This document shows positions 38,748-51,831 of a DNA stretch of 64,000 bases, in pieces. A program made the position numbers and the translations under genes. Under the pieces are notes generated by a model, which worked only from the letters and a program-made list of their open reading frames with translations, was not told the DNA's origin and made no database searches. The DNA lies in NCBI GenBank assembly GCA_043825735.1, contig JBDRRP010000027.1, forward strand, positions 62,001 through 126,000, given 5' to 3'. The stretch comes from Pseudomonadota bacterium. GTDB taxonomy: Bacteria > Desulfobacterota > Desulfobacteria > Desulfobacterales > JBDRRP01. The number at the start of each line of letters is the position of its first letter. Position 1 is the first letter of the stretch.

Positions 38748-39758
38748 CTAGCAGATTCTCGGAAGCTGCTCGCCGGAGAGCATGTCGACGATACGGCTGC
38801 CGCCGATCCGGGTTGTCATGAAGACCTTTCCCGGCGGCGTCGCCACCACTTCGCCGATGACCACCGCATCACGGCCCAGGGGGTCTGCCGTCATGGCCGA
38901 GAGCACGGCATCGCTGGCTTCCGACGGCACCAGCGCCAGCAGCTTTCCCTCGTTGGCCACGTAGAGGGGATCGAATCCCAGCAGTTCGCAGACACTGGCG
39001 ACCTGAGGCCGCACCGGAATATCGGCCTCGATGATGCGGATGCCCACCCCGGCCTGCTGTGCGATTTCGTTGAGTGCCGTCCCGACACCGCCCCGGGTGG
39101 GGTCTCTAAGCACATGGATGTCGGGGCAGACCGCCAGCATCCGCGCCACCATGTGGTTCAGGGCAGCGGTGTCGCTGGTGATGGGCGACTCGAAGGCCAG
39201 CCCTTCGCGCCGGGTCATGATGGTCATGCCGTGATCGGCGATGGTCCCGCTGAGTATTACCCGGTCGCCCGGCCGCGCGTTGCCCGCCATGACAGACACG
39301 CCCTCGGGCACGAGACCGACGCCGGAGGTATTGATAAAAATCTTGTCGGCCGCGCCGCGGGGAACGACCTTGGTGTCGCCGGTGACCACCTGGACGCCCG
39401 CGGCCCGGGCCGCCTCGGCCATGGTATTGACGATCCGCCGCAGGTCATCCATGGGAAAGCCTTCCTCCAGAATCAACCCGACACTGATAAACAGCGGCCG
39501 GCCACCGCACATGCTGATATCGTTGACGGTGCCGTTGATCGCCAGATCGCCGATATTGCCGCCGGGAAAGAAAATGGGGTCCACCACATAGCTGTCGGTG
39601 GAAAACGCCAACCGGCTGCCGCCCACATCGATCACGGCGCCGTCGTGAAGCTGCGCCAGTGCCGCATTGGCAAAGGCCGGCAACAGCAGTTCCGTGGTGA
39701 GCGCGTGGGAAATCTTTCCGCCGCTGCCGTGGTCCAGAAGAATCTGATCAGGTTTCAT
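38748..39758 (-). CDS. hypE: Hydrogenase maturation carbamoyl dehydratase
   Basis: HGSGG, TDSYVVDPIFFPGG, GDTKVV, RDPTRGG, ANEGK, C-terminal PRIC. Confidence 0.96.
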   Translation of the reverse strand: MKPDQILLDHGSGGKISHALTTELLLPAFANAALAQLHDGAVIDVGGSRLAFSTDSYVVDPIFFPGGNIGDLAINGTVNDISMCGGRPLFISVGLILEEGFPMDDLRRIVNTMAEAARAAGVQVVTGDTKVVPRGAADKIFINTSGVGLVPEGVSVMAGNARPGDRVILSGTIADHGMTIMTRREGLAFESPITSDTAALNHMVARMLAVCPDIHVLRDPTRGGVGTALNEIAQQAGVGIRIIEADIPVRPQVASVCELLGFDPLYVANEGKLLALVPSEASDAVLSAMTADPLGRDAVVIGEVVATPPGKVFMTTRIGGSRIVDMLSGEQLPRIC

Positions 39759-39807
39759 AAGGTATTTTCTCAATCTAATCGGTTAATGAAACTGCAAAAT
39801 CGATTTG

Positions 39808-40149
39808 AACCACAGAGGACACGGAGACCACGGAGGAAACCAATATTTGGCGGCCTTCGGCCGCGAAGTCAAAACCCTTTCTCGCGCAGAACCGCAGGGA
39901 CGCCAAGAACTGCGCAAAAAGATGAACATCGAATGAAAACCCGTACTCTCGCTAAGACGCAAAGCGCGCAAAGAACTGCAAGTTCGCTGAAACCCTGAAA
40001 ATCGAACACCTTTTCCGGCATCGGTTGCTGTCAGCCAATGTGAAACCGAATTCACGCCGCAGGCGTTTCCATCCTGATTTTCTTGGCGTTCGTGGCGCCT
40101 TGGCGCGAGCAATTGTTTTTTCTCCGTGACCTCCGTGTACTCCGTGGTT
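39808..40149. repeat. Nested palindromic intergenic repeat (hypD/hypE junction)
   Basis: Outer AACCACAGAGGACACGGAGACCACGGAG ... CTCCGTGACCTCCGTGTACTCCGTGGTT arms; core homologous to 2829-3085. Confidence 0.85.
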
Positions 40150-40160
40150 CCCCTGGCTTA

Positions 40161-41252
40161 TCACGATTGATGATAGCGGTAGTACGCCGCACAGGTGCCT
40201 TCGCTGGACACCATACAGGGCCCCACCGGCCGGGTGGGCGTGCAGCGTTTTTTGTACAGGGCGCACTGCGGCGGAATCTTCAGCCCGGTGAGAATCTCCC
40301 CGCAGGCACATCCCGGCGGCTCCGGCACATCCCTGAGCGCCACCGAAAACTTGCGGGCGGCGTCAAAGGATGTGAATGCTTCCCGGAACGCAAGACCGCT
40401 GCCGGCAATCACGCCGATGCCGCGCCAGACGGTGTCGGCAACGGTGAAAACCGAATCCATCACCTGGCGGGCCCTGGGGTTGCCTTCATTTGACACGGCC
40501 CTCGGATAGGCGTTTTCAAGGGCCGGGGCGCTGTTTTCGATCTGATGCACCAGCATGAGAATGGCCTGGAGCAGATCGGTGGGCTCGAATCCGCCCACCA
40601 CCATGGGAATGCGGCTGGCCTCGGCCAGGGGCCGGTAGGCATCCACACCGATGATCACCGACACGTGCCCCGGCAGCAGAAACCCGTCTACGGCAATGCC
40701 CTCGGTTTTGACGAGGGCGTCCAGGGCCGGCGGCACCAGTTTGTGGGCCCCGTATACGCTGAAATTGCGCAAGCCCTCGGCCTGGGCGGCGAGCACGGCC
40801 GCGGCAATGGTGGGCGCCGTTGTTTCGAAACCCACCCCCAGAAAGACCACCTGGCGCTCCGGATTCTCCCGGGCCAGGGTGAGCGCGTCCATGGTGGAAT
40901 ACACCATGCGGATGTCCCGACCGGAGGCCCGCTCCTGCTGCAGAGAACTGTCTGAACCCGGCACCCGGATGAGATCACCGAAAGTGGCGATGGTGACCTC
41001 AGGTATCCGCGCCAGATCGATAAAGGCGTCGATTTCGCCCTGGGCCGTCACGCACACGGGGCAGCCCGGGCCGGAAAGCAATGAAATGGTTGCCGGCAGC
41101 ATGTCCCGTACGCCGCTGCGGAACAGCGCCACGGTATGCGTGCCGCAGACCTCCATGATCCGGATGGGGGTGCGGCTCGTTTTCCGTATCTCGTCGATCA
41201 GCGCCCGGGCCGCCGCCGGGTCCCGGTATTCGTCGGCATGCTTGATAGCCAT
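40161..41252 (-). CDS. hypD: Hydrogenase maturation protein HypD
   Basis: MEVCGTHT, GPGCPVC, GFETT, PGHVS, CMVSSEGTC motifs. Confidence 0.97.
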   Translation of the reverse strand: MAIKHADEYRDPAAARALIDEIRKTSRTPIRIMEVCGTHTVALFRSGVRDMLPATISLLSGPGCPVCVTAQGEIDAFIDLARIPEVTIATFGDLIRVPGSDSSLQQERASGRDIRMVYSTMDALTLARENPERQVVFLGVGFETTAPTIAAAVLAAQAEGLRNFSVYGAHKLVPPALDALVKTEGIAVDGFLLPGHVSVIIGVDAYRPLAEASRIPMVVGGFEPTDLLQAILMLVHQIENSAPALENAYPRAVSNEGNPRARQVMDSVFTVADTVWRGIGVIAGSGLAFREAFTSFDAARKFSVALRDVPEPPGCACGEILTGLKIPPQCALYKKRCTPTRPVGPCMVSSEGTCAAYYRYHQS

Positions 41253-41294
41253 ATGCCTCCTGTCGGTTCAATTCCCAGAACAGAGGTAGTTTTT

Positions 41295-41624
41295 ACCACG
41301 AAGCACACGAAGGCCACGAAGATTAAATTGATTTATGGCCGTCCTTCGCCCGACTACCTGCAAATTTCATGTTTTTCCCGAATCACCCAGTGCGGTATCG
41401 CCGCAACCAAAACCCGTTCTCGCGCAGAGGCGCAGGGCCGCAGAGAAATTCATGTTTGAAAAACGCTACCCCCTCAATAGTGACAAGCAGCGCCCTTTAC
41501 CGCCGTGCAAATAGTGTTTCTTCTGTTTTCAGTCTCAGCAGTTCTCAGCGTCTCTGCGTCTCTGCGCGAATAATTAGTTTTTCTGTTTTTCAGTCGCTTC
41601 GTGATCTTCGTGTACTTCGTGGTT
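41295..41624. repeat. Nested palindromic intergenic repeat (hypF/hypD junction)
   Basis: ACCACGAAGCACACGAAGGCCACGAAG ... CTTCGTGATCTTCGTGTACTTCGTGGT enclosing CTCGCGCAGAG...CTCTGCGCGA. Confidence 0.85.
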
Positions 41625-41634
41625 AATATTTCTT

Positions 41635-43932
41635 TCAGTCGATTAGCCCCTCTGCCACCATGGCCGCCGCAGCCACCGCCTGGCCCAATGACAGACCGCC
41701 GTCATTGGCGGGAACGCGTTCCTGTGAATATACCGCAAAGCCTTCCTTTTCAAGGCTGCGCATGAGCCCGCCCAGAAGGATGGCGTTCTGAAAGACGCCA
41801 CCGCTCATCACGACCTGGGAGATCCCGGTATCCGATCGCAGCTGCCGGCACAGGGCGGTGAACAGAACTACCAGGGTGTTGTGAAAGGCCATGCTCACCA
41901 CGGGAATCGGGATCCCGGCGATGACATCGGCCACCACCCCGCGAATGATCGGTTCGGGCAGTATGCGGTAAAGATCGCCGTCGCTGACCCAGTCGTGGTC
42001 GTAGGCCGCCGTCACCGTGCGATCAGCCGCCATTTCAAGTTCCATGGCCGCCTGGCCTTCGTGGCGCACCCGGTTGCGGATGCCTGCTATCGCCGCAACC
42101 GCGTCGAAAAGGCGCCCCATGCTAGAGGTCTGCGGTGCGTTGAAACCCTTTTGGACCATGGCCGTCACCGTTTGCAGGGCCACAGGGTCCAGCGTCTCCA
42201 ACATGGGCAGCGGCCGATCGACAAACCCCTCGCCATAGGTCCGCAAAAGGTAGCTCACCGCCATCCGCCAGGGCTCCCGGATCGCCGCGTTGCTGCCCGG
42301 CATGGCAACGGTGTCCAGGTGGGCCAGTCGCGTGAACCGCGCCGGGGTCGCCGCCAGCACCTCGCCGCCCCAGCTGTTGCCGTCGGTGCCGTATCCGGTA
42401 CCGTCAAAACTCAAACCCAGAACAGGACCGTCCAAATGGTGCTCGGCCATGGCGCTGACGATGTGGGCATGGTGGTGCTGGACACCCACCGGCCGCGCCC
42501 ACTCAAAGGCCAGGGCAAACTGAGTGCTCAGATAGTCCGGATGCAGGTCGTGGGCCACCAGCTCGGGCGTAATATCCAGGATCCGCTGCAGGTGCCGCAC
42601 CGTGAGCTCCAAAAACGAAAGGGTTTCCGCGTTTTCCAGATCCCCGATGTGCTGGCTCAAAAACGCCTGGTCTCCCCGGGTCAGGCAGACGGTGTTTTTC
42701 AAAAGGGCCCCGCAGGCCAGCACCGGGGGCTGCCGGCGCTTCAAGAACACCGGAATCGGCACATAACCCCTGGAGCGCCGGATGAGCCGCACCCGATCTG
42801 CGCTGTGGCGCACGATGGTATCATCCGTGCGCAGATAAATGTCACGGTTGTGGTTCAGATGCCAGTCGGCAATATTATCCAGACGGGAAAAGGCCTCCGC
42901 ATTGTCGATGCAGATGGGCTCCTCACTGAGGTTGGCGCTGGTCATCACGAGGGCTTTGAACCCTTCAGCCAGCAGCAGGTGGTGCAGCGGGGTGTAGGGC
43001 AGCATGATACCAAAGAAGCGGTTTCGCGGCGCCGCCGACTCCGCGATGCCCTGTCCGGCTTTCTTTTCCACCAGAACGATAGGACGCTGCGGAGCGGTCA
43101 AAAGCGCAATATCCTCTGCACGCAGATTGGCAATGGCCATAGCGCCGGCGGTGTCGGCCACCATGAGGGCAAAGGGTTTTTCCTCACGGTGTTTGCGTTC
43201 GCGAAGCCGGGTCACCGCCGCCTCACTGGTGGCGTCCACCGCCAGATGAAACCCGCCGAGCCCCTTGATGGCCAGAATGTCTCCGTGACGCAGTTTTTGC
43301 GCCGCTGTGCGGATGGGATCACCGCCAGCCACCGGCTGCCCCCAGTCATCGAACAGAGCGACCCGGGGGCCGCAGACCGCGCACGCGTTGGGCTGAGCAT
43401 GAAACCGCCGGTTCATGGGGTCGTCGTATTCCCTCTGGCAGTCACCGCACAGGATGAAATGTCTCATGCTGGTGTGGCGCCGGTCATAAGGCACGTCGTC
43501 GATAATGGTATAGCGCGGCCCGCAGTTGGTGCAGTTGATGAACGGGTACCGGTAGCGACGGTCGCCGGGATCGAAGAGTTCCCGTACGCAGTCTTCACAA
43601 ACCGCCACATCCGGGGAAATAAGTGTGTTTCGGGAGGTTTCCCGCTGGCTGGCAACAATGACGAAATCGGTCCGGCCGGTAGGCAGGTCGGGCGCCTCGG
43701 CGATATCGGTAATCCGCGCCAGGGGGGGCGCGTCAGCGGCAATGGCTGCTATAAATCGGTCCACCGCGTCGGGAAGACCTTCCACGCGGATCATCACGCC
43801 GGAACTGGTGTTGGCCACTTCCCCGGCAAGGCCATGCCGGTGGGCGAGTTGAAAGATAAAGGGCCGAAATCCCACCCCCTGCACGATGCCGCGGACACTG
43901 AGACAGCGGGCAATGGTGGCTTCAGGGGGCAT
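41635..43932 (-). CDS. hypF: Carbamoyltransferase HypF
   Basis: VQGVGFRP acylphosphatase domain, two CxxC zinc fingers, KGLGGFHL, QHHHAH, PANDGG. Confidence 0.97.
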   Translation of the reverse strand: MPPEATIARCLSVRGIVQGVGFRPFIFQLAHRHGLAGEVANTSSGVMIRVEGLPDAVDRFIAAIAADAPPLARITDIAEAPDLPTGRTDFVIVASQRETSRNTLISPDVAVCEDCVRELFDPGDRRYRYPFINCTNCGPRYTIIDDVPYDRRHTSMRHFILCGDCQREYDDPMNRRFHAQPNACAVCGPRVALFDDWGQPVAGGDPIRTAAQKLRHGDILAIKGLGGFHLAVDATSEAAVTRLRERKHREEKPFALMVADTAGAMAIANLRAEDIALLTAPQRPIVLVEKKAGQGIAESAAPRNRFFGIMLPYTPLHHLLLAEGFKALVMTSANLSEEPICIDNAEAFSRLDNIADWHLNHNRDIYLRTDDTIVRHSADRVRLIRRSRGYVPIPVFLKRRQPPVLACGALLKNTVCLTRGDQAFLSQHIGDLENAETLSFLELTVRHLQRILDITPELVAHDLHPDYLSTQFALAFEWARPVGVQHHHAHIVSAMAEHHLDGPVLGLSFDGTGYGTDGNSWGGEVLAATPARFTRLAHLDTVAMPGSNAAIREPWRMAVSYLLRTYGEGFVDRPLPMLETLDPVALQTVTAMVQKGFNAPQTSSMGRLFDAVAAIAGIRNRVRHEGQAAMELEMAADRTVTAAYDHDWVSDGDLYRILPEPIIRGVVADVIAGIPIPVVSMAFHNTLVVLFTALCRQLRSDTGISQVVMSGGVFQNAILLGGLMRSLEKEGFAVYSQERVPANDGGLSLGQAVAAAAMVAEGLID

Positions 43933-43955
43933 GCCAAAAACTCCGGAAGGCAGGG

Positions 43956-44210
43956 CTATTCGCCGACATCGGGCGGGGCGCCCAGCGCGTCCACCGCTGC
44001 TGCCGCCTCCTTGAGGTAGCGCAGCGACTCCATGGCCGCGGCCTCGTCCACCCTGGAAATGGCAAAGCCGGCATGGACGATGACGTAATCACCAACGGCG
44101 GCATCCTCCAGCAGCAACAGGCTGGTCGTGCGCCGCACCCCATCCACATCGATGGTGGCGATATTGTGCTCGTTGATATCAACAATTTTGGAAGGGATGG
44201 CTAGGCACAT
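43956..44210 (-). CDS. hypC: Hydrogenase chaperone HypC/HupF
   Basis: MCLAIP start and VGDYVIVHAGFAI motif. Confidence 0.96.
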   Translation of the reverse strand: MCLAIPSKIVDINEHNIATIDVDGVRRTTSLLLLEDAAVGDYVIVHAGFAISRVDEAAAMESLRYLKEAAAAVDALGAPPDVGE

Positions 44211-44712
44211 AGTCGTGCGTTCCTTTCGTATAAGTCGCACCGAGACGTGCGACTTCCTTGAGCACGGCGTCGATAATGGGGTCCACCTGGGCGGCAATCT
44301 CCGGCGTCATATCGACATCCAGCGTCTCCATGTCTTTGGGTTCGACCCCCAGGATCACCGTTTCAGGCACTTTATCAAGAGCCTGCATCAGGGTCAGCGC
44401 TTCGAGAAAATCAATCTGGTGAACGGAGTTTTTCGCTCTGATCCGGTCGGGGATGCCGTCTCTGTCGATGCGATACAGGCTGCCGGGCGCCCCGTGATTG
44501 CGGATAATGTCGATGACGATGAGATGATCGGCCTCGGACATGACCCCCAGAAGGTGGACACCGAGCACGCCGCCGTCCACCACACGCACGTTTTCGGAAA
44601 ACGTGACCATGTCTTCGATCTTTTTGATGACGTGAATGCCGAAGCCCTCATCTTTAAAAAGCACATTGCCGATGCCCATGATCATGATCTGCGGAGTGTC
44701 GGTATCTGTCAT
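44179..44712 (-). CDS. Hydrogenase maturation endopeptidase (HyaD/HybD family)
   Basis: GIGNVLFKDEGFG, VDGG, SVHQ, GVEP motifs. Confidence 0.94.
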   Translation of the reverse strand: MTDTDTPQIMIMGIGNVLFKDEGFGIHVIKKIEDMVTFSENVRVVDGGVLGVHLLGVMSEADHLIVIDIIRNHGAPGSLYRIDRDGIPDRIRAKNSVHQIDFLEALTLMQALDKVPETVILGVEPKDMETLDVDMTPEIAAQVDPIIDAVLKEVARLGATYTKGTHDYVPSHPFQNC

Positions 44713-45096: not shown

Positions 45097-45133
45097 AAAA
45101 GGAAACTTCCCGCCGCCCGAAGGCGGCGGGAAG
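45097..45133 (-). terminator. Intrinsic terminator after the hydrogenase large subunit
   Basis: CTTCCCGCCGCC-TTCG-GGCGGCGGGAAG followed by TTTCCTTTT. Confidence 0.8.
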
Positions 45134-45145
45134 CGGTCGATCATG

Positions 45146-46795
45146 TTACAGCGCTTTGATCTTGTATACCTGGTTGGAGTCCGGATCGATCACGTGGACC
45201 GCACAGGCGATACAGGGATCGAAGCTGTGGACCGTACGCAGGACTTCCAGCGGCCGTTTGGGATCGGCGATGGGTGTGCCGATAAGCGCCTCTTCCAGCG
45301 GACCCAGCTGACCCTTTTCGTCTCTGGGACCCAGGTTCCAGGTCGAGGGCACCACGTACTGGTAGTTCTTGATCTTGTCGCCTTCGATGACGCACCAGTG
45401 GCCCAGGGAGCCGCGGGGAACGTCGTTGAGGCCGACGCCTTCGCCGTGTTTCGGGAACTCCCACGGGGCGACCGTAGCGGTGTTGCCGCTCTTGAGGTTG
45501 CCGATGAGCTCGCCCATCCACGCACCGATGCGGTCGCCAACAGCGACGGTCTCGATGCCGCGGGCGGCGGTGCGGCCCAAGGTGGAAAACAGCGCCGTCG
45601 CCGGTACGTTGAGGGTCTGGAGCACGGAGTTGACGATCGGCGCGATCTCCTTGTGTCCCTTGGCATAAGCCACCAGCACGCGGGCCAGCGGGCCGACTTC
45701 ACAGGCCTTGCCGTTGGCGCGCGGGGCCTTCATCCAGGTGTAGTCGCCGGAGCTCGGGTTGTATTTCGGGTCTTCCTTCAAAGGCTCGGTTTTTCCCTTG
45801 TAGGGATGCAGCGGCGAGCTCTTGTCGTACCAGCCGCGGGCCACGCTTTCGGTAACGTCTTCCTGCTTGGCCATCTGCGGATTGCCGATGTCGCGGTTGT
45901 AAACCACGCCGCGCGGCATGTAGAGGCTGTCAGGCTCGTTGGCCGTCTCGGGGAAATCGCCCCAGGCATGGAAGTTGGTGGTGCCGCCGATGCCGCCCCA
46001 ATCCTTGTAAAAAGAGGCCACGGCCAGCAGATCGGGGATGTAGACCTTCTTGACGAATTCCTGGGTTTCCTTGGTGATATAGAGGAACTCGGCCAGACGG
46101 TCGGGGGTGAGATCCCGCACACAGGACACACCGCCCACCACGAGAAACTGCGGGTGCGGGTTCTTGCCACCGAAAATGGCATGCATCCGCGCGGCTTTTG
46201 CCTGGAGACGCAGGGCCTCAATGTAGTGCGCGGCCGCCATCAGGTTGGCTTCCGGCGGCAGCTTGTAGGCCGAATGGCCCCAGTAGGCGTTCTCGAAAGG
46301 ACCGAGCTGGCCGCTTTCCACGAAAGTCTTGATCCGCTGCTGAACCTGCTTGAAATAGCTGGTGCCTCCCCACGGGGCTTCGCTGACATTTTCTGACAGG
46401 GTGGCGGTCTTTTTGGGATCGGCGCTGAGCGCGCTGACGATGTCCACCCAGTCGAGCGCATGCAGGTGATAGAAATGAACGATGTGGTCATGCTGATACT
46501 GCGCACCGTGCATCAGGTTTCTGATGAGCCGTGCATTGTCGGGAATCTTCACGCCAACTGCATCTTCGACTGCCCTCACCGAGGACAGAGAATGAATGTA
46601 CGTTCAGACACCGCAGGACCGGGCGACAAAATGCTGTGCATCGCGCGGGTCCCTGCCCTCGAGGATCATCTCAATGCCCCGGAACATCTGGCCGGAGCTC
46701 CAGGCGTTGACAACCTTACCGCCAGCCACCTCGACCTCTACCCGGAGGTGGCCTTCAATCCGGGTAATTGGATCAATCACAATTCTCTGGCCCAT
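45146..46795 (-). CDS. Periplasmic [NiFe]-hydrogenase large subunit (549 aa) with an in-frame TGA at codon 64, probably selenocysteine
   Basis: ORFs 46604-46795 and 45146-46579 share one frame; the junction reads ARSCGV-(TGA)[24 protein letters not shown] at the N-terminus; [10 protein letters not shown] plus C-terminal extension. Confidence 0.88.
46570..46588 (-). promoter_or_regulatory. Bacterial SECIS-like hairpin
   Basis: CUGUCCUC-GGU-GAGGGCAG (8 bp, one G-U pair) beginning 15 nt after the UGA; apical loop starts with G. Confidence 0.7.
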
Positions 46796-46841: not shown

Positions 46842-47789
46842 TTACATCTCCACGTAAAAGGGCGACATTTTGTCCCAGAAATTCGGTTCACTGCACCCGA
46901 TGCAGGGGTGACCGGCCTGAACCGGCCAGCTGGTGCCGTCGTTGAACTTGGCCACAGGGCAGTTGTTGTAAGTTTCGGGACCACGGCAGCCCAACTTGTA
47001 TAGGCAATAGCCCATGGCGGCTTCTTTGGAGCCGAATTCCGTAACGAACTCGTCGTTTTCGAAATGGGCGCGGCGCGGGCACTGATCGTGAATGGTCTTG
47101 CCGAAGGCAAAGAGCGGGCGGCCGAGATCGTCGAGGGCCGGCAGTTTGCCCAGCAACAGGTAGTTCACCACCGTGCCGACGAAATTGATCGGGTTCGGCG
47201 GGCAACCGGGGATGTTCAGGGTTTTGATGCCAAGGGCATCGGAAACGCCCTTGTAGCCGCCCGGGTTGGGCTTGGCCGCGGGAACGCCGCCGTATGCCGC
47301 GCAGGTTCCCATACAGATGGTCGCTGCCGCCTTGGGCACCACTTCCTTTGCTATGTCCAAAAAGCTCTTGCCGGCGACCTTGCCGTAACCGCCGTTGTAC
47401 TTGGTGGCAATGGAGCCTTCCACCACGCAGATGAACTTGCCGGCGTATTTTTCAACGGCATTGTGCAGGTTTTCTTCGGCCTGATAGCCGGAAGCGGCCA
47501 TGATGGTCTCATGGTATTCGACGGAAATGATCTCCAAGACCAGATCGTCGATCCACGGATACATGGACCGCAGCAACGCTTCGGAACAACCGGTGCACTC
47601 ACCAAAATGCAGCCACACCACCGGTGGACGCTGTTTCGGAGCAGCAAATACTTCCGCCACCTTGGGCACGTAGGCGGCGGAGAGCCCCATGGTCGCGGTC
47701 AGGGCAGTACAGAACTTCATGAAGTCCCGCCGCGAGACGCCCTTGCTCTCCAGCCTTTCGTAAAACGCTTTTTCCCTTTCCATCGGCAC
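46842..47789 (-). CDS. [NiFe]-hydrogenase small subunit, Tat-exported, soluble periplasmic type
   Basis: SRRDFMKFC twin-Arg signal; [36 protein letters not shown]...[13 protein letters not shown]; no C-terminal TM anchor. Confidence 0.96.
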
Positions 47790-49036: not shown

Positions 49037-49122
49037 GGAGGGATGGCCGAGTGGTTTAAGGCGGCGGTCTTGAAAACCGTTGAGTGAAAGCTCCGTGGGT
49101 TCGAATCCTACTCCCTCCGCCA
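49037..49122 (+). tRNA. tRNA-Ser(TGA)
   Basis: GGAGGGATGGCCGAGTGG...GCGGT-CT-TGA-AA-ACCGT, variable arm, GGTTCGAATCC, CCA end. Confidence 0.95.
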
Positions 49123-49182
49123 ATAAATTCGCTTTGCGGATTTATTCATGATGCGAAATAAAAAATTCGAAGAATTTTTTAC

Positions 49183-49275
49183 GGAGAGATGGCCGAGTCG
49201 GCTGAAGGCGCTCGCCTGCTAAGCGAGTGTGGGGGGAAACTTCCACCCAGGGTTCGAATCCCTGTCTCTCCGCCA
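49183..49275 (+). tRNA. tRNA-Ser(GCT)
   Basis: GGAGAGATGGCCGAG...CTCGC-CT-GCT-AA-GCGAG, long variable arm, GGTTCGAATCC, CCA end. Confidence 0.95.
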
Positions 49276-49878: not shown

Positions 49879-51831
49879 TTACTCCGTTTTCAACGCATCG
49901 GTGAGCGCGCCGCCGTCCGGCACGCCGGTTTCAGGGTCCCAACCGAAGGCCTTCCAGTAATCACGCATCATCTCCTCGATGGCAATGGTGCGCCCCGCGT
50001 TGGCCCCGCGGGTCATGGGCGGACGGCCCAGGGCGCGGTCGCTCATCTTGAAGGTCCGGGGGTCGACGCCGTGCCGGACATTGAATCCCTGGCGAAGGTC
50101 CTGCACCCGTTTGCCCATGGCCATATAATCCGCAGGGCTTCGCGTCCACCCGGTGGCGGCGTTGAGCCACTCGAATACCGGAAATCGGTGTACCCCTAAA
50201 AACGCACCGAAAAGACAGAGTCCGGCCCCGTTGAGAACGTTCATGAACTGGCTGCAGGCGGCGGCGGCCTGGGTCTTTTCCGGGCTGTGATCGAATTTGC
50301 TGTTTTTCAAATAGAACAGGTTGCGATCGGGCAGATCCGGCAGGCGCCGCCAAAGCTGAAACATCTCGTAATAGAGCTGGGAGCCCACGGTATGGCGTCC
50401 GGGGGTCGGCTCCACGCAGTTGTGCAGGGCAAAACCGGGATCGAACCGGCCATCATGCATCCCCAGTTCCTGACCACCGGCGTGCATGGCCAAATCGGAA
50501 GCGTTACCGCCGATCCGCTGAGCAGCCTTCCTCACACCGTCGGCCAGGATGTCGCCGATCCCCTCCCGGCGGATCATTTTCTCCACCAGAGCCACCATGG
50601 CGGGTGCATTTCCCCAGGAAAGCTCGAGACCGTCCATATCCGCCGGCCCGAGAATGCCCTTTTCCACGCACTCCATGGCAAAAGCCATCGTCCCGCCGGC
50701 GGAGATGGTGTCCATGCCGGCGCGGTTGAGCATGTCATTCATGGTGAAAACGCTCGCGGCGTCATGGTTCATGCACAGGCCGCCCAAAGACAGCACCGTT
50801 TCGTATTCCGGACGATGCCCTTCACCGCGGCCATCGACAAGGATGCGGCCGCCGCACCCCAGCGGGCATGAATAACAATGGTACTTGGCGATGGTGGCGC
50901 CGGCAAACACATCGGGGCTGATGTCCGCCGAAAGCTCCGGACCGAAATCCTCGTTGGAGCCTTTCCAGTTCTTGATGGGCGCATCCCCCATCTCGATACT
51001 CATCTGATTCATGCTCACGGTGCCCCATTTTCGAAGCATGATCTTGTAGAGCATCCCGTCAGTGGCGAACTGGGCCGGCAGCACCCGCATGAGGGCCCCC
51101 AGGTGAGGGGTCATTTCGCCGGGGACGAATGGCGGCTGAAACTGAACCGCCTCATTGCACTGGCGAGAAAGGACGCCGATGGCACTGCGATCATGAACGG
51201 GAATGCGCTGGCCGCCACCGAGCACCAGGGCCTTGAGCCGTTTGCTGCCCATGACCGCGCCCAGTCCCGAGCGGGCGGCGATACGGCCCTCGTCGTTGAC
51301 CACACCGGAGATCAGGCTGAGCCGTTCGCCTGCCGGTCCGATACAGGCGACCCGGGGTTTATTGATGCCCGAATGGGTCATCAGATACCGCTGGGTCTCA
51401 ACGGTGTCGCGTCCCCAGATATCGTGGGCATCCCGGATTTCTGCAAGCCCCTTGGTGATGGCAAGATAAACGGGCGCATCACTGATGCCTGAAATAAAAA
51501 TACCGTCATAGCCGCACCGCTTGATGGCCGGCGCCAGATTGCCGCCGCAGTTGGCGTCCCCCCATCCGCCGGTCAGGGGAGATTTGCCCACCACCATCCA
51601 GCGGCCGGCAAAAAGGCTGCCGGTGCCGGTGAGCATGCCGGTGACAAATCCCAGAATATTATCGGGGCCAAGGGGATCGGCACCCTGCGGGATGCGCATG
51701 TAGAGCAGATGGGCGGCCAGCCCCATCCCCGACATGACCCGTTCGTAGACCGTTTCGGGCACGGGCATCTCCCGAAACGCCCGGGTGCCCAGATCCACCA
51801 GCAGCACCTTTCCCATGGTTCCTGACGGCAT
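49879..51831 (-). CDS. aor: Aldehyde:ferredoxin oxidoreductase family (tungstopterin) protein
   Basis: KSPLTGG, CIGPAGE, AARSGLGAVMGSKRLKA, CYSCPLGC, PEYET, GMDTIS motifs. Confidence 0.92.
   Translation of the reverse strand: MPSGTMGKVLLVDLGTRAFREMPVPETVYERVMSGMGLAAHLLYMRIPQGADPLGPDNILGFVTGMLTGTGSLFAGRWMVVGKSPLTGGWGDANCGGNLAPAIKRCGYDGIFISGISDAPVYLAITKGLAEIRDAHDIWGRDTVETQRYLMTHSGINKPRVACIGPAGERLSLISGVVNDEGRIAARSGLGAVMGSKRLKALVLGGGQRIPVHDRSAIGVLSRQCNEAVQFQPPFVPGEMTPHLGALMRVLPAQFATDGMLYKIMLRKWGTVSMNQMSIEMGDAPIKNWKGSNEDFGPELSADISPDVFAGATIAKYHCYSCPLGCGGRILVDGRGEGHRPEYETVLSLGGLCMNHDAASVFTMNDMLNRAGMDTISAGGTMAFAMECVEKGILGPADMDGLELSWGNAPAMVALVEKMIRREGIGDILADGVRKAAQRIGGNASDLAMHAGGQELGMHDGRFDPGFALHNCVEPTPGRHTVGSQLYYEMFQLWRRLPDLPDRNLFYLKNSKFDHSPEKTQAAAACSQFMNVLNGAGLCLFGAFLGVHRFPVFEWLNAATGWTRSPADYMAMGKRVQDLRQGFNVRHGVDPRTFKMSDRALGRPPMTRGANAGRTIAIEEMMRDYWKAFGWDPETGVPDGGALTDALKTE

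Follow-up and report, generated by a model that had tools for sequence, protein, structure and literature searches.

Does a periplasmic [NiFe] hydrogenase of the Desulfobacterales carry selenocysteine (Sec) at a ligand that bridges the nickel and iron of its active site, or is its gene simply broken? The question is raised by a large-subunit gene which, in the stretch of 64,000 nucleotides analysed here (the window), contains an in-frame TGA at the place of a metal-binding cysteine. The original prediction, made from the letters of the DNA, took this gene for a candidate new type of selenocysteine hydrogenase. We favour the reading that Sec is placed at the bridging position by way of the UGA codon and a hairpin that follows it, and from the comparison of sequences we estimate the probability of this reading at roughly 0.88.

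The large-subunit gene (45146..46795, minus strand) runs from an ATG at 46795 to a TAA at 45146 and comprises 549 codons. Translated with TGA as Sec (U), it yields a protein of 549 residues in which one codon alone is recoded, that of U64. This TGA (46604..46606, minus strand) is the sole table-11 stop inside the frame; reading and translation thus bear out the earlier claim that nothing else interrupts it. The protein matches PF00374 with 714 bits over residues 39-534, which cover profile positions 1-508 of 508 (Pfam), and past His534 a C-terminal extension of 15 residues is intact. Codon 64 lies in the context R-S-C-G-V-U-T-Y-I-H, and the L1 motif reads RSCGVU, with U for the second Cys of RxCGxC, while the L2 motif reads DPCIACAVH. 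Window residues 2-131 align without a gap to residues 6-135 of the Desulfovibrio gigas enzyme, so that C61 corresponds to Cys65 and U64 to Cys68, the N-terminal bridging ligand. The UGA therefore stands at the second cysteine of the N-terminal motif, where the original prediction had placed it. The classical Sec site stays Cys (codon TGT in DPCIAC), and DPC is also kept in every locus that reaches the C-terminus among the 40 TGA loci described below. Excerpts of two papers agree on the roles of these ligands: two are terminal and two bridging (PMC8020662), and within the N-terminal CxxC the second position bridges Ni and Fe while the first is a Ni-only ligand (PMC13582414). The Sec of an N-terminal CXXU motif is accordingly predicted in the latter source to bridge Ni and Fe (PMC13582414).

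Under translation table 11 the gene falls apart into one ORF of 63 aa (46795..46604) and another of 477 aa (46579..45146), the split that had been foreseen for annotation pipelines. In many genomes of sulfate reducers whose genes are called with this table, the principal periplasmic hydrogenase could be annotated as a truncated gene or go unrecorded. The same split could also be taken as the mark of a pseudogene, of a nonsense mutation, or of an error in sequencing or assembly, and damage of this kind has a likely parallel among the relatives: L147 (G265:C89) has a second in-frame TGA where the window has Trp (...NAYWGH...), and this codon probably arose by a nonsense change or by error and does not stand for Sec.

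The surroundings of the gene argue against such decay, since the accessory genes are intact and the genome yielded no other large subunit of Group 1. All hydrogenase neighbours lie on the minus strand and all are intact. The small subunit (46842..47789, minus; PF14720 and PF01058; likely ATG start at 47783) bears the twin-arginine export signal SRRDFMK in its translation. On the other side of the large subunit follow a maturation endopeptidase of the HycI/HynC type (44179..44712, minus; PF01750, 108 bits), hypC (about 44013..44210, minus; PF01455, 93 bits; G000:C27:106013-106210), hypF with five HypF domains by Pfam (41635..43932, minus) and hypD (40161..41252, minus; PF01924, 497 bits). The gene at 38748..39773 (minus), which has an AIR-synthase fold (PF00586 and PF02769) and a weak match to the selD family, is a candidate hypE named from its position. 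These Pfam matches agree with the earlier statement that the small subunit, the protease and hypCFDE are intact, with hypE as a candidate only. A search of the [NiFe] families in the genome found three large-subunit genes, the window gene being the sole Group 1-like one, and no large subunit of the DPU type. By sequence, the enzyme is of the Group 1 periplasmic uptake [NiFe] type, to which the HydDB subgroup label 1b, 'prototypical', would probably apply. The operon would encode a periplasmic, Tat-exported uptake hydrogenase of the Desulfovibrio HynAB kind.

Several smaller features accompany the operon. A terminator-like hairpin lies just past the large-subunit stop (45105..45134, minus), with 13 pairs, 10 of them G-C, and a T-rich tail; it comes from a consensus scan only, in which the number of sites was not above that in shuffled sequence. 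An 87-aa ORF at 44185..43925, in a frame different from that of hypC, and an ORF at 40112..39786 had no Pfam match. Between hypF and hypD, the gap of about 380 nt (41253-41634) holds no minus-strand ORF of at least 50 aa. Elsewhere in the window, two tRNA-Ser genes with anticodons tga and gct (49037-49275) adjoin a gene for a tungsten/molybdenum-type aldehyde:ferredoxin oxidoreductase (AOR; 49879-51831).

A TGA confined to this strain would fit a nonsense mutation, and such confinement had been named beforehand as a ground for giving up the idea of Sec; the same TGA was found well beyond the strain. The search of 41 genomes of the same order gave a match in 30. Counting orthologues of at least 68% identity from the same order with a recovered N-terminus, the homologous codon is TGA in 14 of 24 genomes and TGC or TGT in 10 of 24; counted by locus, the same search gave TGA in 14 of 29, the remainder being TGC or TGT. 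The alternation of TGA with Cys codons that had been proposed as a check recurs in a collection of species representatives. Among its best 80 named loci, two lack the N-terminus and 78 contain the motif, with TGA in 40 and a Cys codon in 38. Codon 64 alternates solely between TGA and TGC or TGT in these 78 loci and is never Trp or any other residue. Nearly all of the best 80 named loci come from metagenome bins of the Desulfobacterales type, and those with TGA do so without exception; the named isolates Desulfosarcina variabilis, Desulfospira joergensenii and strain HSG16 have a Cys codon. In an even sample of the phylum (401 genomes, 201 with a match), the TGA of the window lineage occurs in 9 genomes, the window's own included, and these represent families outside the window's order as well. 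A frameshift is suggested in one TGA orthologue, L045 (G003:C1), whose match is split into residues 1-403 and residues 401-549, with the DNA of the two parts overlapping.

The sequencing runs point the same way. Contigs of the probable source run span the UGA site with zero differences, and this run, the sole one with most of the stretch, is not independent of the assembly; three further runs hold small shares that come from relatives. Left out of account are a stretch that lacks cover, the unevenness of depth along the gene and the habitats of the runs with small shares. No variant at 46604-46606 is among the differences listed in the four runs (168 further differences are unlisted). The TGA is thus upheld in reads as far as the listed differences and the agreeing source-run contigs go, the latter as a source that the assembly shares. 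Some contigs from RNA libraries of relatives overlap with the gene, and one of them spans the UGA site; such libraries can contain DNA. Together, the support for the gene from reads and expression is weak. An origin of the TGA in gene decay or in error is nevertheless extremely improbable, given that the same TGA stands in 49 distinct genes whose frames are otherwise open and that no variant is listed at the site in any of the four runs.

If the codon is genuine, the signal that could recode it has to be found. Bacterial SECIS elements follow rules of distance from the UGA and of loop. Fifteen nucleotides past the UGA, folding and comparison identify a SECIS-like hairpin (46570..46588, minus) with an 8-bp stem and a GGU loop. 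Its 19-nt sequence, CUGUCCUC-GGU-GAGGGCAG, belongs to the predicted minimum-energy fold, in keeping with the hairpin as first proposed. The fold energy of the 81-nt stretch is unremarkable (z = -0.35; 66 of 200 shuffles fold equally well), so that energy alone does not show the hairpin beyond chance; the comparison across genes does. Across the 49 distinct TGA genes, codons +6 to +11 show no variation in their third positions (entropy 0.00 bits), whereas 41 Cys orthologues reach 1.5-1.95 bits there, and the codons that flank the hairpin are equally variable in the Sec and Cys sets. The hairpin sequence is almost invariant across all TGA genes, and with third positions fixed in all 49, the conservation that had been sought in TGA homologues is present. 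Judged by this codon comparison, the hairpin is under selection only where the TGA is present. An Rfam scan of 46450-46700 with E up to 10 returned no SECIS family and a single chance match to a snoRNA, and the UGA context of selD in the same genome (one locus folded) has no clear loop shape in common with the hairpin.

The genome also encodes the means to read such a codon. It carries selA and two copies each of selB, selD and the tRNA-Sec gene, every one scoring above its curated cut-off, and the selA, selB, selC and selD genes on which the idea had been made to depend are all there. Both selD genes have an in-frame TGA of their own. The Sec genes lie in G000 at C107:92539-102053, C88:25794-27686, C73:10878-11801 and C62:68966-69059; contig C107 clusters one tRNA-Sec, one selB and one selD, and selA is single in the genome. 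The doubling of selB, selD and tRNA-Sec may reflect a duplicated system or the 3.7% contamination of the assembly. Among the related genomes selA is found in 39 of 41, the two without it being 61% and 79% complete, which indicates that the whole related group can decode Sec.

A different role for the codon would be that of a regulatory stop, or of a site read through by a normal tRNA, such that the level of enzyme tracks selenium and the product is free of it. Direct support for this was absent from the evidence above, and the hairpin could in principle slow ribosomes. The position and loop of the hairpin and the full Sec machinery fit recoding by SelB instead, the codon is exchanged with Cys codons only (78 loci), and the 63-residue product of termination would hold one of the four metal ligands and has no known function. 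We regard this account as very unlikely. In the reading we prefer, that of Sec insertion, SelB and Sec-tRNA(Sec) would recode UGA codon 64 as selenocysteine, directed by the hairpin that lies within the coding sequence 15 nt past the UGA. In the mature enzyme, selenium would then replace sulfur at the N-terminal ligand bridging Ni and Fe, and the first Cys of DPCxxC would be unchanged. The insertion of selenium, its bridging coordination and its effect on catalysis are what we infer from the gene and its relatives.

Further candidates for selenoprotein genes were sought in the window. Twenty frames that stay open across one or two TGA codons were listed, and none of the five compared with Pfam was supported: three match a family, but with domains that stop short of the TGA, and the other two match none. 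Most of the other 15 have a short stretch on one side of the TGA.

How Sec came to this position can be read in outline from a tree of 95 distinct large subunits (a quick IQ-TREE run under LG+G4, with two distant paralogues as the root). The 49 Sec rows are all confined to one subclade of 71 rows (support 92), and the 24 more basal rows are all Cys. At least 11 changes of Sec/Cys state occur in the subclade, 7 of them forced by well-supported branches. Because all Sec genes share one hairpin, the simplest reading is a single gain of Sec in a Cys-type lineage resembling the Desulfobacterales, followed by several reversions. Two genes, L090 and L105, have a Cys codon (TGC) together with the intact 19-nt hairpin of the Sec genes, a state expected soon after a change from Sec to Cys, and they look like recent reversions. 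The gene nests among Cys orthologues, far from L052, an outgroup from the same order that is a classical gene of the DPU type. For this reason the N-terminal Sec is, by the tree, of independent origin from the classical [NiFeSe] enzymes, as the original prediction had held; the window gene's place in a clade rooted in the Cys type, with L052 far off, also supplies the phylogenetic placement that had been called for.

The frequency of reversion to Cys argues that Sec is dispensable at the bridging site. Near-sister pairs differ solely in this state, for example L063 with Sec and L057 and L059 with Cys. A neighbouring residue varies with it. Residue 67 (U+3; codon 46595-46597) is Thr in 33 and Ile in 16 of the 49 Sec forms and Val in none, while 37 of the 46 Cys forms have Val at the position. 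Among 7 pairs that are independent by phylogeny, 5-6 change in the same direction and 0 in the opposite one (p about 0.03). The covariation may have its cause in the protein, as room for the larger Se, or in the mRNA, as a spacer.

These observations bear on whether the selenium matters at all. Sec might be inserted and yet be nearly neutral for catalysis, the two forms interchanging by drift or with the local supply of selenium and having no distinct enzymology. The at least 7-11 Sec/Cys changes on the tree and the near-sister pairs that differ in state alone are what such neutrality would leave, and engineering gives it further support in that the C79U variant of Escherichia coli Hyd-1 showed no gain (PMC8020662). 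According to excerpts of that paper, C79U kept 13% of native activity, the highest of four Sec variants; its KM for H2 was lowered, its H+ reduction was not improved, and at 10% O2 it was nearly inactive (PMC8020662). From a variant this weak and O2-sensitive, an advantage of Se at the bridging site is not apparent, and its data do not support a benefit under oxygen. Yet the unit of UGA and hairpin is unchanged across genes only about 70% identical, Sec decoding is costly, and residue 67 shifts with the state at p about 0.03. We therefore see neutrality as possible but on the unlikely side.

If the selenium of the bridging position does have an effect, it may lie in recovery from oxidation. 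In one oxidised state of the enzyme from D. vulgaris Miyazaki, as described in excerpts, a disulfide joins Cys81 and Cys84, which have left Ni, and Cys546 is sulfenylated (PMC10498676). A CxxU motif would exchange a disulfide of the Cys81-Cys84 type for a more readily reduced selenenylsulfide, which could speed reactivation after oxygen, a benefit that we propose by analogy and with low confidence. The fullest form of this idea is that a large natural clade holds a Se bridge, with UxxU in some relatives, that CxxU acts as a protective redox couple giving faster recovery from O2 than in the Cys sisters, and that residue 67 (Thr or Ile, never Val) is tuned to the larger atom. We consider it doubtful that all of this holds together.

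Some relatives extend the pattern to both N-terminal ligands. In the window lineage, L142 (G296:C61) combines the lineage's own hairpin with TGA at both ligand codons (UxxU). Another lineage of Group 1, L164-L167 (G194, G269, G114, G352), has the form RICGV-U-TTVH and shares about 54% identity with the protein of the window; its motif is CxxU in L165 and L167 and UxxU in L164 (G194:C139) and L166 (G114:C78). Its hairpin stands in the same place with another sequence and begins 17 nt past the TGA, differences which suggest a separate origin of Sec in this lineage. L142, L164 and L166 read R-x-U-G-V-U and retain Cys in DPCxxC. In excerpts of PMC13582414, UXXU is called 'previously unrecognized' and is reported for Group 4 only (PMC13582414).

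Studies of the role of Se in hydrogenases have dealt almost exclusively with the terminal DPU position, and the present clade amounts to a set of natural experiments at the bridging one. Its recurrent Sec and Cys sister enzymes would make the effects of a Se bridge on rate, bias and O2 recovery measurable on evolved proteins, in addition to engineered ones.

The idea of Sec at the bridging Cys itself is already in print as an observation on sequences, and the window gene is not a new type in the sense first claimed for it. Excerpts of a 2026 paper describe N-terminal CXXU, UXXC and UXXU motifs in Group 4 and credit Baltazar et al. 2011 with three sequences bearing N-terminal CXXU, two of Group 1 and one of Group 3 (PMC13582414). 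As cited there, the sequences of Baltazar et al. 2011 have Sec at the second CxxC position, a predicted Ni-Fe bridge, on sequence grounds (PMC13582414). An earlier paper also cites Baltazar et al. 2011, for 'purported examples' in which a bridging Cys is replaced; it names C579, the C-terminal bridging Cys, and so disagrees with PMC13582414 on the site (PMC8020662, 2021). A new CxxU position of Sec in a hydrogenase large subunit ('FrhA') was reported for Olavius symbionts (PMC1976440, 2007). In the excerpts of the citing papers, the descriptions of CxxU make no mention of clade size, SECIS, reversions or co-varying residues, and a search of the literature on Sec hydrogenases of Desulfosarcina, Desulfobacteraceae and Desulfatibacillum found no description of the present clade. 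What may be new to print is how far the clade extends, the conservation of its SECIS, the reversions, the behaviour of residue 67 and UxxU in Group 1.

Among characterised enzymes, the closest are the standard [NiFe] hydrogenases of Desulfovibrio. The nearest solved structures are 1frf, 1h2a and 2frv (683-697 bits), from D. fructosovorans, D. vulgaris Miyazaki and D. gigas, and the likeness extends from end to end, with the same motifs, a small subunit exported by Tat, and a C-terminal extension served by a protease of its own. They differ in having Cys at the bridging position, and D. gigas has Val (TYVH) where the window has Ile. The classical [NiFeSe] enzymes of Desulfomicrobium baculatum (1cc1) and D. 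vulgaris Hildenborough (2wpn, 5jsh) match over part of the length only, with 317-330 bits; these too are Group 1 periplasmic enzymes with one Sec among the four Ni ligands, but their Sec is the terminal ligand in DPUxxC, where the window has Cys. The Group 4 [NiFeSe] enzymes, as presented in excerpts of PMC13582414, share with the window gene an N-terminal-only Sec, discovery through UGA read-through and independent origins from Cys ancestors, whereas they are membrane-bound, energy-converting multisubunit complexes and the window encodes a periplasmic two-subunit uptake enzyme. Hyd-1 C79U, finally, places Sec at the same ligand position of a Group 1 enzyme and indicates that the site tolerates Se; in contrast to the natural genes, it is an artificial variant of an O2-tolerant enzyme with another FeS relay, made without natural co-adaptations such as that at residue 67.
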